Shown here: piece by piece, positions 42,753 through 49,547 of the stretch
How the letters are laid out: each line of letters opens with the position of its first letter
How positions within the stretch are numbered: the stretch's first letter is position 1
Sequence record: ON210139.1
DNA length: 64,000 nt
Direction: 5' to 3' (one strand)
DNA from: Escherichia phage EC128
Notes under the pieces: model-generated
Seen by the model: only the letters and a program-made list of their open reading frames with translations
The model's database searches: none
What the model was told of the DNA's origin: nothing
Program-made: the position numbers and the translations under genes

Positions 42753-43085
42753 ATGAAAACGATTAATCTGAACGCTGCAGTTAAAACTAAATGCTTCAAT
42801 GGTAAATATAATGAAACTATGTGGTTCTTAATGGCAGTTGAAGGTGATATTATTGAAGTAGAAACAACAGAAGGTATGGGAACAGATTTCACCTTTACAA
42901 TTCAAGTTCATAATTTCTTTACTGGTTGGATTTATGAATTGAATACAGTAATCGTTGGAAAAATTGAACAAAATGAATTAGGCGAATGGCATTATGTTAC
43001 AGCTCGCCAACGTGCAGAACGCTTAATTGAGAAGATGAAAAAAGTTGGTAAACTTGACATGCAGCATTGGAAAGTAGTAAAATAA
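42753..43085 (+). CDS. hypothetical protein (110 aa)
   Basis: ORF with SD AAGGAGAATAAA. Confidence 0.55.
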   Translation: MKTINLNAAVKTKCFNGKYNETMWFLMAVEGDIIEVETTEGMGTDFTFTIQVHNFFTGWIYELNTVIVGKIEQNELGEWHYVTARQRAERLIEKMKKVGKLDMQHWKVVK

Positions 43086-43845: not shown

Positions 43846-44042
43846 TGAAATTCTTTTTAGGTCAAACTGTTGAATTAAAGGGAGTTGGTATACCTGGATT
43901 AATTTCTAAGGTTCTACCTCCATTTAAATGGAGTGGTATTCAAATAAAAGAGGCTTATATTGTTTCCTGGGTAGATGGAAATGAAGACCTTCGTATGGGT
44001 GATGAATTATCTCCTATCTACGGATTAAAGGAATTAGTATGA
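43845..44042 (+). CDS. hypothetical protein (65 aa)
   Basis: ATGA-coupled ORF. Confidence 0.45.
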   Translation: MKFFLGQTVELKGVGIPGLISKVLPPFKWSGIQIKEAYIVSWVDGNEDLRMGDELSPIYGLKELV

Positions 44043-44245
44043 ATATAATTAATAAGATTTTTGGAATTCAGTACATTAAGGTCACATATAAAGTAACAGA
44101 TAAAAATCCATATACTGATGAACGTGAAGAACCACGAGTTGAGTCTATTATATTAGAAAAGGACCCTAACTGGCCAGTTGAATTTCGTCTTCCTTGCTAT
44201 GGTCATTGGGCTGATGTTGAAATTATAAGCATTGAAAATGTCTGA
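44039..44245 (+). CDS. hypothetical protein (68 aa)
   Basis: ATGA-coupled ORF. Confidence 0.45.
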   Translation: MNIINKIFGIQYIKVTYKVTDKNPYTDEREEPRVESIILEKDPNWPVEFRLPCYGHWADVEIISIENV

Positions 44246-44696
44246 GTTAGAGATTAGAAGCAATTTTAGGTGGCCATCATGTGCATTAAGTAATTTCGCC
44301 CAATGGCCTTTCGTTATGGATGGTATTCAATTTGGAGGTCTTGAAGGATTCCTCCAAGGATGCAAGGTGAAAAACGTTGAACAACAACGTCGTATATTTG
44401 GGTTATCCGGGCTTGCCGCCCAACAAGCTGGAAGGTCTTATGCAAGAGCTCAGGACCGTGGAACCCTCTTCTGGCTTGGAGTTCCATTTTCAAGATACTC
44501 CCCGGCGTGGAAAGAATTATACACAAATGCATATTTTGAAGCAGCGATCCAAAACAAGGGCTTTCGTGATGCATTACAAGCCTCGAAAGGAAAAGTTTTG
44601 AAGCACAGCATGGCTAGTGGTCTAACAAAAGATGATACAATACTAACCGAAGCTGAATTTATTGATGTGTTAAACCTATTAAGAGACTCTCTATGA
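44232..44696 (+). CDS. NADAR / YbiA-like (DUF1768-type) protein, putative ADP-ribose or N-glycoside processing enzyme
   Basis: 154 aa; SNFAQWPFVMDGIQFGGLEGFLQGCK resembles the SNFxxWP...DG...E...Q.K core of the YbiA/NADAR fold. Confidence 0.5.
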   Translation: MKMSELEIRSNFRWPSCALSNFAQWPFVMDGIQFGGLEGFLQGCKVKNVEQQRRIFGLSGLAAQQAGRSYARAQDRGTLFWLGVPFSRYSPAWKELYTNAYFEAAIQNKGFRDALQASKGKVLKHSMASGLTKDDTILTEAEFIDVLNLLRDSL

Positions 44697-45532
44697 AGCC
44701 TACTATTTTAACTGATATTGATGGAGTGTGTTTAAGCTGGCAATCAGGCCTTCCTTATTTTGCTCAGAAATATAATCTTCCGTTGGAACATATTTTAAAA
44801 ATGATCCAAGATGAAAAATTTATTTCTCCTGGTAAACTTTTTAATTGTGATGAAGAACTTGGTGTCAAGTTAATTGAAAAATACAATCGTTCAGATTTTA
44901 TTCGTTACTTGTCTCCATATAAAGATGCTCTGTGTGTAATTAACAAATTAAAAGAAGATTATAATTTTGTAGCTGTTACAGCGCTGGGTGATTCTATTGA
45001 CGCTCTGCTGAATCGTCAATTTAATTTGAATGCTCTTTTTCCTGGTGCCTTCTCAGAAGTACTGATGTGTGGTCATGATTCTTCAAAAGAAGAGTTGTTC
45101 AAAAAGGCAAAAGAGAAATATAACGTAATTTGTTATATTGACGATCTCGCTCACCACTGCGATCACGCGAGTGAAATATTAAGTGTTCCTGTTTATTGGA
45201 TGGCTCGAGGGGAACGTGACAGTATTCCAAAAACTGCTCAGCGAGTTTATACATGGAACGATGTAGAGAATAAGCTTTTTTCACCAAAGGAAAATAAAGA
45301 AAGTTTTGATAGTGAAAAAGCTATAAAAGATGTAATTGAAAAGATGATTAAAAACGATTCTTTTCGTTGGAACACTACCTGGAGAACTCCTGGATTTAAT
45401 CCTTATAATCATCTATATCATCCATATCAGACACATCCGTTTCAGACATGGAACTATATTAAACCCGGCGGTATAGAGTATTTGTATAATAGACCTACTT
45501 GTGGTGATAATATTTTCCAAGGAGCATTCTAA
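44693..45532 (+). CDS. HAD-superfamily phosphatase-like protein
   Basis: 279 aa; N-terminal ILTDIDGV matches HAD motif I (DxDGx). Confidence 0.5.
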   Translation: MKPTILTDIDGVCLSWQSGLPYFAQKYNLPLEHILKMIQDEKFISPGKLFNCDEELGVKLIEKYNRSDFIRYLSPYKDALCVINKLKEDYNFVAVTALGDSIDALLNRQFNLNALFPGAFSEVLMCGHDSSKEELFKKAKEKYNVICYIDDLAHHCDHASEILSVPVYWMARGERDSIPKTAQRVYTWNDVENKLFSPKENKESFDSEKAIKDVIEKMIKNDSFRWNTTWRTPGFNPYNHLYHPYQTHPFQTWNYIKPGGIEYLYNRPTCGDNIFQGAF

Positions 45533-45801
45533 TGTTTGTTGTTCACACTATTTATGAAAATGAAGGTAATACTACACGTGATTACGGTCACGTAAATCAA
45601 TTTTTTAGATGCAATCCAGAATTCCGAGCTCAAAAAGACGAACGAATTTTTAAAAAATGCGTAGAGCAAGGTTTCATTTATATCAAGCACTGGATGCAAG
45701 GAAATAAAGTTAGAACCACATATCATAAGTCTTTGACTGAGCTTAATGATGAATTGATTTATAATAGAGCTGTAAACCAAACTCTGAAGGATGAACAATG
45801 A
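45532..45801 (+). CDS. hypothetical protein (89 aa)
   Basis: ORF coupled between the upstream ORF and gene 30. Confidence 0.5.
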   Translation: MFVVHTIYENEGNTTRDYGHVNQFFRCNPEFRAQKDERIFKKCVEQGFIYIKHWMQGNKVRTTYHKSLTELNDELIYNRAVNQTLKDEQ

Positions 45802-47261
45802 TTCTTAAAATTCTGAACGAAATAGCATCTATTGGTTCAACTAAGCAGAAGCAAGCAATTCTTGAAAAGAATAAAGATAATGAATTGCTTAAACGAGTAT
45901 ATCGTCTGACTTATTCTCGTGGGCTGCAGTATTATATCAAGAAATGGCCTAAACCTGGTATTGCTACCCAGAGTTTTGGAATGTTGACTCTTACCGATAT
46001 GCTTGACTTCATTGAATTCACATTAGCTACTCGGAAATTGACTGGAAATGCAGCAATTGAGGAATTAACTGGATATATCACCGATGGTAAAAAAGATGAT
46101 GTTGAAGTTTTGCGTCGAGTGATGATGCGAGACCTTGAATGTGGTGCTTCAGTATCTATTGCAAACAAAGTTTGGCCAGGTTTAATTCCTGAACAACCTC
46201 AAATGCTGGCAAGTTCTTATGATGAAAAAGGCATTAATAAGAATATCAAATTTCCAGCCTTTGCCCAGTTAAAAGCTGATGGGGCTCGGTGCTTTGCCGA
46301 AGTCAGAGGTGATGAATTAGATGATGTTCGTCTTTTATCACGAGCCGGTAATGAATATCTAGGATTAGATCTTCTTAAGGAAGAATTAATCAAAATGACC
46401 GCTGAAGCCCGCCAGATTCATCCAGAAGGCGTGTTAATTGATGGCGAATTGGTATACCATGAGCAAGTTAAAAAGGAGCCAGAAGGCCTAGATTTTCTTT
46501 TTGATGCTTATCCTGAAAACAGTAAAGCCAAAGAATTCGCCGAAGTAGCTGAATCACGTACTACTTCTAATGGAATCGCTAATAAATCTTTAAAGGGAAC
46601 CATTTCTGAAAAAGAAGCTCAATGCATGAAGTTTCAGGTCTGGGATTATGTTCCATTGGTAGAAATATACGGTCTTCCTGCATTTCGTTTGAAATATGAT
46701 GTACGTTTTTCTAAACTAGAACAAATGACATCAGGCTATGATAAAGTAATTTTAATTGAAAACCAGGTAGTAAATAACCTAGATGAAGCTAAGGTAATTT
46801 ATAAAAAGTATATTGACCAAGGTCTTGAAGGTATTATTCTCAAAAATATCGATGGATTATGGGAAAATGCTCGTTCAAAAAATCTCTATAAATTTAAAGA
46901 AGTAATTGATGTTGATTTAAAAATTGTAGGAATTTATCCTCACCGTAAAGACCCTACTAAAGCGGGTGGATTTATTCTTGAGTCAGAGTGTGGAAAAATT
47001 AAGGTAAATGCTGGTTCAGGCTTAAAAGATAAAGCCGGTGTAAAATCACATGAACTTGACCGTACTCGCATTATGGAAAACCAAAATTATTATATTGGAA
47101 AAATTCTAGAGTGCGAATGCAACGGTTGGTTAAAATCTGATGGCCGCACTGATTACGTTAAATTATTTCTTCCGATTGCGATTCGTTTACGTGAAGATAA
47201 AACTAAAGCTAATACATTCGAGGATGTATTTGGTGATTTTCATGAGGTAACTGGTCTATGA
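45798..47261 (+). CDS. 30: ATP-dependent DNA ligase
   Basis: 487-aa ORF; adenylation motif around KADGAR; recognised as T4 DNA ligase. Confidence 0.95.
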   Translation: MILKILNEIASIGSTKQKQAILEKNKDNELLKRVYRLTYSRGLQYYIKKWPKPGIATQSFGMLTLTDMLDFIEFTLATRKLTGNAAIEELTGYITDGKKDDVEVLRRVMMRDLECGASVSIANKVWPGLIPEQPQMLASSYDEKGINKNIKFPAFAQLKADGARCFAEVRGDELDDVRLLSRAGNEYLGLDLLKEELIKMTAEARQIHPEGVLIDGELVYHEQVKKEPEGLDFLFDAYPENSKAKEFAEVAESRTTSNGIANKSLKGTISEKEAQCMKFQVWDYVPLVEIYGLPAFRLKYDVRFSKLEQMTSGYDKVILIENQVVNNLDEAKVIYKKYIDQGLEGIILKNIDGLWENARSKNLYKFKEVIDVDLKIVGIYPHRKDPTKAGGFILESECGKIKVNAGSGLKDKAGVKSHELDRTRIMENQNYYIGKILECECNGWLKSDGRTDYVKLFLPIAIRLREDKTKANTFEDVFGDFHEVTGL

Positions 47262-47446
47262 AAGCTTACTTAGAAACAATTGTCATTGCTCAAAAAGAAG
47301 GTGGAGATGTTTCTACTTCTGTATCACAAGTCATTCTCGAATTTGTAGATGCATACGCTTATAATAAATTTACAGAAACATTTGATGCCTATGAAAAAGG
47401 ACCAAAGTTTGAAATATATCGTACTCTCTTACCACTAGATTACTAA
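47258..47446 (+). CDS. hypothetical protein (62 aa)
   Basis: ATGA-coupled ORF after the ligase gene. Confidence 0.45.
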   Translation: MKAYLETIVIAQKEGGDVSTSVSQVILEFVDAYAYNKFTETFDAYEKGPKFEIYRTLLPLDY

Positions 47447-47469
47447 AGGCCTTCGGGCCTTTAATTTTA
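47445..47469 (+). terminator. terminator-like hairpin
   Basis: AAAGGCC-TTCG-GGCCTTT followed by AATTTTAT. Confidence 0.5.
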
Positions 47470-47495: not shown

Positions 47496-49547
47496 ATGAT
47501 GGAACTAATTACAGAATTATTTGACGAAGATACTACTCTTCCGATTACAAACTTAAATCCAAAGAAGAAAATACCACAAATTTTTTCAGTTCATGTTGAT
47601 GATGCAATTGAACAACCAGGCTTTCGTTTATGTACCTATACATCTGGAGGTGATACTAATCGTGATTTAAAGATGGGCGATAAAATGATGCATATTGTTC
47701 CTTTTACATTAACCGCTAAAGGTTCAATTGCTAAATTGAAAGGTCTTGGTCCAAGCCCAATTAATTATATCAATTCGGTTTTTACTGTTGCAATGCAAAC
47801 AATGCGTCAGTATAAAATTGATGCCTGTATGCTCCGTATTCTTAAGTCTAAAACTGCTGGTCAAGCTCGACAAATTCAAGTTATTGCTGATAGACTTATC
47901 CGTAGTCGTTCAGGTGGCAGATACGTCCTTCTTAAGGAACTCTGGGATTATGATAAAAAGTATGCATATATTCTTATACATCGCAAAAATGTATCACTAG
48001 AAGACATTCAAGGGGTTCCGGAAATTAGTACCGAGCTCTTTACTAAAGTTGAATCGAAGGTCGGTGATGTTTATATCAATAAAGATACTGGAGCTCAAGT
48101 AACTAAAAATGAGGCAATTGCAGCATCTATTGCACAAGAAAATGATAAACGTTCTGATCAAGCTGTAATCGTTAAAGTTAAAATTTCCCGTAGAGCAATT
48201 GCACAAAGTCAGTCGTTGGAATCTTCTAGATTTGAAACACCGATGTTTCAAAAATTTGAGGCTTCAGCGGCAGAATTAAATAAACCAGCGGACGCTCCTT
48301 TAATTTCTGATTCTAATGAATTAACGGTAATTTCTACTTCAGGATTTGCACTAGAGAATGCTCTTAGCAGTGTTACAGCTGGGATGGCATTCAGAGAAGC
48401 TTCTATAATTCCTGAAGATAAAGAATCCATTATTAATGCAGAAATAAAAAATAAAGCTTTAGAAAAATTACGAAAAGAATCTATTACTTCAATAAAAACT
48501 TTAGAAACTATTGCTTCTATCGTCGATGATACTTTAGAAAAATATAAAGGTGCTTGGTTTGAAAGAAATATTAACAGACATTCGCATTTAAACCAAGATG
48601 CTGCAAATGAGTTAGTACAAAATTCTTGGAATGCAATAAAAACAAAGATTATTCGAAGAGAATTACGTGGATATGCTCTTACCGCTGGATGGTCATTACA
48701 TCCTATAGTCGAAAATAAAGATTCATCTAAATACACACCAGCACAAAAACGCGGAATTCGTGAATACGTAGGTTCAGGATATGTAGACATAAATAATGCT
48801 CTTTTGGGATTATATAATCCAGATGAGCGTACAAGTATTTTAACAGCACCTGAAATAGAACAAGCCATTGATAATTTAGATTCAGCCTTTAAAAATGGTG
48901 AACGATTACCAAAAGGTATTACTTTGTATCGTTCACAACGAATGTTACCTTCAATATACGAAGCAATGGTAAAAAATCGAGTTTTTTATTTTAGAAACTT
49001 TGTGTCAACATCATTATATCCAAATATTTTTGGTACTTGGATGACTGATTCATCTGTGGGTGTTTTACCAGACGAAAAGCGTCTAAGTGTTTCTATTGAT
49101 AAAACTGATGAAGGACTAGTAAATTCTAGCGATAATTTAGTTGGAATTGGATGGGTTATTACTGGGGCTGATAAGGTTAATGTTGTTTTACCCGGTGGAA
49201 GTTTAGCGCCTTCAAATGAAATGGAAGTCATTTTGCCACGTGGATTAATGGTCAAAGTTAATAAAATAACCGATGCATCTTACAACGATGGAACAGTTAG
49301 AACTAACAACAAGCTTATTCAAGCTGAAGTTATGACCACAGAAGAACTCACCGAATCGGTAATCTATGACGGAGACCATTTAATGGAAACTGGTGAATTG
49401 GTTACAATGACAGGTGATATAGAAGACAGAGTTGACTTTGCATCATTTGTTTCATCAAATGTTAAACAGAAAGTAGAATCATCTCTTGGAATTATTGCGT
49501 CTTGCATAGATATTGCAAACATGCCTTACAAGTTCGTTCAAGGATAA
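47496..49547 (+). CDS. alt: Alt ADP-ribosyltransferase (packaged; modifies host RNA polymerase alpha)
   Basis: 683-aa ORF (probable start at the second ATG, MELITELFDED); recognised as T4 Alt. Confidence 0.9.
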   Translation: MMELITELFDEDTTLPITNLNPKKKIPQIFSVHVDDAIEQPGFRLCTYTSGGDTNRDLKMGDKMMHIVPFTLTAKGSIAKLKGLGPSPINYINSVFTVAMQTMRQYKIDACMLRILKSKTAGQARQIQVIADRLIRSRSGGRYVLLKELWDYDKKYAYILIHRKNVSLEDIQGVPEISTELFTKVESKVGDVYINKDTGAQVTKNEAIAASIAQENDKRSDQAVIVKVKISRRAIAQSQSLESSRFETPMFQKFEASAAELNKPADAPLISDSNELTVISTSGFALENALSSVTAGMAFREASIIPEDKESIINAEIKNKALEKLRKESITSIKTLETIASIVDDTLEKYKGAWFERNINRHSHLNQDAANELVQNSWNAIKTKIIRRELRGYALTAGWSLHPIVENKDSSKYTPAQKRGIREYVGSGYVDINNALLGLYNPDERTSILTAPEIEQAIDNLDSAFKNGERLPKGITLYRSQRMLPSIYEAMVKNRVFYFRNFVSTSLYPNIFGTWMTDSSVGVLPDEKRLSVSIDKTDEGLVNSSDNLVGIGWVITGADKVNVVLPGGSLAPSNEMEVILPRGLMVKVNKITDASYNDGTVRTNNKLIQAEVMTTEELTESVIYDGDHLMETGELVTMTGDIEDRVDFASFVSSNVKQKVESSLGIIASCIDIANMPYKFVQG

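Follow-up and report, generated by a model that had tools for sequence, protein, structure and literature searches.

The 64,000-nt stretch analyzed here (ON210139.1; hereafter the window) belongs to Escherichia phage EC128, a T4-like phage (Tequatrovirus), and the gene of interest within it is adfN (T4 gene 30.3), which encodes a counter-defense enzyme of the NADAR type. An earlier reading of the letters alone, referred to here as the sequence-only reading, had reported on the + strand an open reading frame (ORF) at 44232-44696, with a length of 154 amino acids (aa) if started at the TTG at 44232, that carries the motif SNFAQWPFVMDGIQFGGLEGFLQGCK. Both the ORF and the motif were confirmed, and the start was corrected to the ATG at 44238, giving a coding sequence at 44238..44696 (+) of 152 codons and a TGA stop for a predicted single-domain NADAR ADP-ribosyl-guanine glycohydrolase. 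This ATG is almost certainly the real start because it is kept in T4, T2, RB69, NBG2 and two Dhakavirus phages, is the start used in the T4 annotation, and is the only one compatible with the published numbering of the catalytic residues (E36 and K43). Unlike this ATG, the TTG two codons 5' of it is not conserved in the compared phages and was rejected as the start. Over the 2.5 kb around the ORF, identity to Escherichia phage vB_Eco_BGP is 99.6%, and of the 657 phage records that match this region, 404 reach 95% identity or more across it. Since the gene order is exactly that of T4 (30.8, 30.7, 30.6, 30.5, 30.4, 30.3, 30.2, 30.1, 30 (DNA ligase), alt.1, alt), the ORF is T4 gene 30.3.

The encoded protein matches T4 gp30.3 (NP_049816) at 151 of 152 residues with no difference in length. 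The sole change, I125M, lies two residues past H123, and M125 is also present in the RB69, NBG2, Dhakavirus and Bas45 alleles. The exact protein is already in public phage records, in teqskov and in PaulHMueller (BASEL phage Bas45). It matched Pfam family PF08010 (Phage_30_3) over 138 of 138 profile positions, with an expectation value (E) of 2.2e-70 and a bit score of 235 (family cutoff 36), and it was assigned to PHROG 652; neither NCBIfam nor PADLOC gave a match to the AdfN protein. Homologs were found by tblastn in 1510 phage records, with hosts that include Escherichia, Klebsiella, Aeromonas, Acinetobacter and Vibrio, and 728 records carry AdfN at 80% identity or more. Pairwise comparison of six alleles gave ratios of nonsynonymous to synonymous substitution (dN/dS) of 0.02-0.14 in the adfN frame, indicating strong purifying selection on adfN. 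The RB69 allele is frameshifted, such that its protein ends after residue 137 (...DDTILT) and lacks the C-terminal helix; the window copy is full length, which rules out that it is a defective allele of the RB69 kind.

T4 also annotates an out-of-frame ORF, 30.3', inside adfN, the counterpart of which occupies 44374-44601 (+) in the window. The T4 ATG of this ORF is ACG here, a substitution silent in the adfN frame, and a TTG follows one codon later. Because this start is lost, RB69 has an internal stop in the 30.3' frame, and dN/dS for divergent pairs is close to 1 in that frame (0.83-1.26, versus 0.10-0.18 in the adfN frame for the same nucleotides), we rejected 30.3' as a conserved coding gene.

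The sequence-only reading had placed the protein in the YbiA/NADAR fold and proposed structure prediction as a check, and this placement was borne out by profile, hhalign and AlphaFold2 evidence. An alignment of 61 homologs (35-87% identity) was used for the profile, the conservation analysis and the AlphaFold2 model. The Pfam NADAR family PF08719 was matched by 24 of the 61 family members (best E 1.5e-7), the 61-sequence profile found Escherichia coli YbiA (2b3w) at E 0.0077 with a match spanning exactly the core motif, and hhalign of the family profile against YbiA gave a probability of 94% (E 1.4e-7) over residues 17-123. The AlphaFold2 model, with a mean predicted local distance difference test score (pLDDT) of 93.7 and a predicted template modeling score (pTM) of 0.89, has the helical core and small flanking sheets of the YbiA fold, and this independently reproduces the structural finding of PMC11825919. 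Membership in the NADAR superfamily is based on this profile and fold evidence, Pfam holding gp30.3 as a separate family.

The residues expected of a NADAR hydrolase are found at the corresponding positions. The core motif, which runs from S18 to K43 (44289..44366, +), aligns with FSNFAAWPIKVDGKTWPTSEHYFQAQKF of YbiA, and within it E36 (codon 44343-44345, +) and K43 (codon 44364-44366, +) align with YbiA SEHYFQAQK. Catalytic E36 is invariant in the 61 homologs, and phosphate-binding K43 is conserved in at least 90% of them. Their counterparts in PnNADAR are E43, which coordinates the distal ribose, and K50, which binds phosphate, with an equal spacing of seven residues (PMC11543638). On the last strand, H123 (codon 44604..44606, +) is likewise invariant and occupies the position of YbiA E125 (VLK-H versus KLV-E); in the literature this residue is Glu in the YbiA family, Asp in DarT1-linked NADARs and His in the phage gp30.3 proteins. 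Finally, the C-terminal helix (residues 138-152, 44649..44693, +), modeled as helical at 138-151, is intact here. In T4 AdfN, E36A and K43A weaken the protein, and C-terminal truncation also lowers its activity (PMC11825919).

Together, these results give us high confidence that the gene is adfN and encodes a free-standing, core-only NADAR hydrolase that reverses guanine ADP-ribosylation by DarT1. In this mechanism, which the literature has shown for T4, the DarT1 toxin of the DarTG1 toxin-antitoxin defense uses NAD+ to ADP-ribosylate guanine in phage DNA at its N2 amino group, a modification that blocks phage replication. AdfN then cleaves the N-glycosidic ADP-ribosyl-guanine bond, restoring normal guanine and allowing replication to continue. 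The target is the lesion and not the toxin, such that contact with DarT1 is not needed, and the enzyme is guanine-specific, leaving in place ADP-ribose on thymidine (the DarT2 product) or on cytidine. To these steps our analysis adds, for the gene in the window, its identity with T4 adfN, the NADAR fold and the conserved catalytic residues, together with a complete C-terminus and evidence of purifying selection. From its sequence, the M125 allele would be expected to have the same activity as the I125 protein of T4.

The function of this protein is already known, having been published between 2023 and 2025. Schuller et al. (2023) showed that DarT1 ADP-ribosylates guanine at N2 and that NADARs reverse the modification (PMC11543638), and in 2024 T4 gp30.3 was found to hydrolyze guanosine-ADP-ribose (G-ADPr), and not thymidine-ADPr, in vitro (PMC11125620). 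The methods of that 2024 Toxins paper give the T4 gp30.3 construct as "residues 1-208", versus a protein of 152 aa; a tag or a typographical error is possible. Johannesman et al. (2025, Nat Commun) then traced the DarTG1 resistance of T-even phages to gene 30.3, which they gave the name adfN, for anti-DarT factor NADAR. In that study AdfN-T4 was necessary and sufficient for counter-defense and had DNA ADP-ribosylglycohydrolase activity in vitro; Bas35-Bas47 all resisted DarTG1, including Bas45, whose protein is identical to the one described here; and RB69, the one T-even phage reported to be DarTG1-sensitive, was restored by ectopic adfN alone (PMC11825919). In 2026 the T4 NADAR was reported to remove G-ADPr and not cytidine-ADPr (PMC12945103). 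In addition, the HIDEN-SEQ preprint (10.1101/2025.11.20.689424) found T4 30.3 to be dispensable on K-12, with insertions lost on DarTG1 hosts, on which it ranks first among the conditionally essential genes of T4 (Data S6: log2 fold change (log2FC) -7.25, adjusted p rounding to zero). The proposal of the sequence-only reading that the gene counters a DNA ADP-ribosylating, DarT-like toxin is therefore supported, the near-identical T4 protein having been experimentally established as AdfN.

Several observations, some on the fold and some on the function, weigh against this conclusion. The window protein itself did not match PF08719 at E ≤ 1, and a single-sequence phmmer search against PDB chains returned no NADAR structure and just a chance match (E 0.6); the link to NADAR became visible only through the 61-sequence profile and the predicted structure. 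On the functional side, T4 gp30.3 gave no rescue from DarT1 toxicity in uninfected E. coli (PMC11125620), AdfN-T4 rescued non-T-even phages only partly (PMC11825919), and it is said to need some T-even-specific factor or context for full activity. Because of the missing rescue in uninfected cells and the partial rescue of non-T-even phages, an account in which the enzyme alone reverses the lesion is incomplete.

The same functional limits bear on the alternative of a stoichiometric inhibitor, a protein that binds DarT1 in the manner of AdfA and AdfB instead of acting catalytically. This would fit the lack of rescue by AdfN-T4 in uninfected cells, as well as the finding that E36A and K43A lower rescue of RB69 only partly (PMC11825919). 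Nevertheless, we regard it as extremely unlikely, as the two-hybrid assay showed no association of AdfN with DarT1 and the purified protein removed ADP-ribose from DNA in a dot-blot that compared it with E36A (PMC11825919); moreover, the invariance of the catalytic residues across the 61 homologs fits an enzyme better than a toxin-specific binder. A different substrate is called for if the protein is instead a housekeeping N-glycosidase of the YbiA type, acting on small metabolites (reactive intermediates of the riboflavin pathway) and not on DNA lesions. To this we assign an almost negligible probability, since the last-strand Glu that defines YbiA is replaced by the invariant His, DNA carrying G-ADPr is a substrate of the T4 protein (PMC11825919, PMC11125620, PMC12945103), and in HIDEN-SEQ the gene is dispensable on plain K-12 and essential on DarTG1 hosts; nor is it obvious why a virulent phage would need to control riboflavin damage.

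The sequence-only reading had further suggested that adfN, a neighboring HAD-family phosphatase-like gene and the ligase gene form a nucleic-acid repair or anti-defense module. The two neighbors were as described: gene 30.2, which is not part of the mechanism proposed here, lies at 44693..45532 (+), and a T4-type DNA ligase (gene 30) at 45798-47261. All four HAD motifs are present in gp30.2, with D8xD10G, T96, K132 and D150-D151 conserved across 45 homologs, and the family profile weakly matches 5'(3')-deoxyribonucleotidase (E 0.027). In the AlphaFold model the HAD-fold phosphatase-like domain covers residues 1 to approximately 200 with pLDDT >90 and is followed by a low-confidence C-terminal tail that is probably disordered. 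Such a phosphatase fold with intact catalytic motifs is in keeping with a linked module, as are the arrangement of the three genes in one tightly overlapping string with ATGA and TAATG junctions and the retention of the order 30.3-30.2-30 in Acinetobacter phage Acj61, the only such case among the four phages compared from other phage groups. Elsewhere, however, the linkage is lost: the 30.3 and 30.2 homologs are approximately 59 kb apart in Klebsiella phage PQ505479, and the 30.3 homolog lies beside a-gt.4, upstream of genes 47/46, in KVP40 and in a tRNA cluster in Ralstonia phage RSP15. Furthermore, on DarTG1 hosts T4 insertions in both 30.2 (log2FC -0.12, p 0.61) and 30.1 (-0.01) were neutral (HIDEN-SEQ Data S6), and the restoration of RB69 took adfN alone. 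We therefore consider joint action of adfN with gp30.2 and the ligase gp30 very unlikely, and the adjacency of 30.3, 30.2 and 30 looks like inherited T4 gene order instead of a functional unit.

Both ends of adfN overlap adjacent genes. At its 5' end, the ATG shares 8 nt with the stop (TGA) of gene 30.4 (ATGTCTGA, 44238..44245, +), and at its 3' end the stop overlaps the start of 30.2 in an ATGA (44693..44696, +); both were read directly from the sequence. These overlapping starts and stops make a tightly coupled gene string. Because of the 8-nt overlap and because no strong Shine-Dalgarno sequence is present at the adfN start, translation of adfN is probably coupled to that of 30.4. A consensus scan identified a candidate sigma-70 early promoter (TTGACA-18-TAAAAT, 11 of 12 matches) at 43054..43083 (+), at the end of 30.8 and upstream of 30.7, and phage NBG2 has an annotated promoter at the corresponding site. 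This is the best sigma-70-like match in the region, the overall count of promoter matches being not above that of shuffled sequence, and it may drive the 30.7-to-alt.1 string that contains adfN. The scan also found, after alt.1, a terminator-like GC-rich hairpin with a T-run (47444..47463, +) that is probably the end of the transcription unit. As a suggestion, the candidate promoter and the hairpin would bracket a 30.7-to-alt.1 unit, in which adfN would be transcribed from the early promoter and its translation coupled to that of 30.4. Beyond this hairpin, 2.8 kb downstream of AdfN, alt (47496-49547, +) encodes the phage's own protein ADP-ribosyltransferase; Acinetobacter phage Acj61 has a similar arrangement of alt and an AdfN homolog, but with alt on the opposite strand. 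The proximity of alt and AdfN probably reflects gene order only.

Gene 30.4 (44039..44245, +; 68 aa, phrog_2042) bears on the T-even-specific factor that AdfN-T4 is said to need. It and 30.3 are the only two T4 genes with significant depletion on DarTG1 hosts (HIDEN-SEQ Data S6: for 30.4, log2FC -1.79, adjusted p 0.014), and the main text of the preprint does not mention 30.4. Homologs of 30.4 occur in 720 records, all from enterobacterial T-even phages; this number is close to that of the records with AdfN at 80% identity or more, and RB69, in which ectopic AdfN-T4 works fully, has one. Even so, the depletion is most likely a polar or translational-coupling effect on adfN, which is a simpler explanation than a cofactor given the overlap between the end of 30.4 and the beginning of adfN. 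This is favored as well by phage T2 (LC348380.1, 1480-1700), where a frameshift breaks the 30.4 homolog into two short ORFs read in different frames and adfN begins 3 nt past the annotated 30.4 remnant with no overlap, since T2 is reported to be DarTG1-resistant (PMC11825919). We therefore rejected gp30.4 as an obligatory cofactor, and the idea that it is the T-even-specific factor is kept as an unlikely lead. At the same position T2 has no 30.5 homolog.

The phage carries an intact copy of a characterized counter-defense gene and should resist DarTG1-type defenses that ADP-ribosylate guanine, which is useful for host-range prediction and for the design of phage therapy. It remains to be explained why full activity of T-even AdfN is restricted to T-even infection, and this question is narrowed slightly here in that the HAD-like gp30.2 is set aside and gene 30.4 provides the one genetic lead.

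Among known systems, the closest is T4 AdfN, with which the window gene shares the order 30.4-30.3-30.2-30.1-30-alt.1-alt as well as E36, K43, H123 and the C-terminal helix; the differences are the conservative I125M and the replacement of the T4 30.3' ATG by ACG. The DarT1-associated NADAR antitoxin DarG1 (BC4488 family; G. lovleyi structure 8BAT, and the E. coli C7 NADAR) is encoded next to the DarT1 toxin gene, whereas adfN adjoins 30.4 and 30.2 and no DarT toxin gene; PADLOC analysis of 30.5, 30.4, 30.2 and 30.1 gave no match, and the PHROG families of these neighbors carry no functional assignment. DarG1 also has an N-terminal extension, which forms an electropositive channel and is missing in the phage protein, in which the fold starts at residue ~3 of 152, in keeping with the description of the phage NADAR as core-only (PMC12945103). 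In addition, DarG1 has Asp on the last strand where the phage protein has His, and the phage protein, unlike DarG1, does not neutralize DarT1 when no phage is infecting the cell. E. coli YbiA (2B3W), the riboflavin-intermediate N-glycosidase that founded the YbiA/NADAR fold, is more distant (~20% identity), has Glu (E125) in place of H123, and serves a housekeeping metabolic role in a LexA-controlled host operon. AdfA (gp61.2), AdfB (ICP1), AdfM (T4 Tk.4), AdfN-Bas32 and AdfN-Bas60 share with AdfN the common purpose of escape from DarTG systems, by differing means. AdfA and AdfB, which are not homologous to AdfN, are small proteins that bind the toxin. For the macrodomain protein AdfM, the proposed activity is removal of the DarTG2 product, thymidine-ADPr, an enzymatic action inferred in a preprint from its fold. 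Finally, the Bas32 and Bas60 NADARs are thought to act enzymatically on the lesion, as AdfN does, but come from different branches of the NADARs and are active even in the absence of infection.
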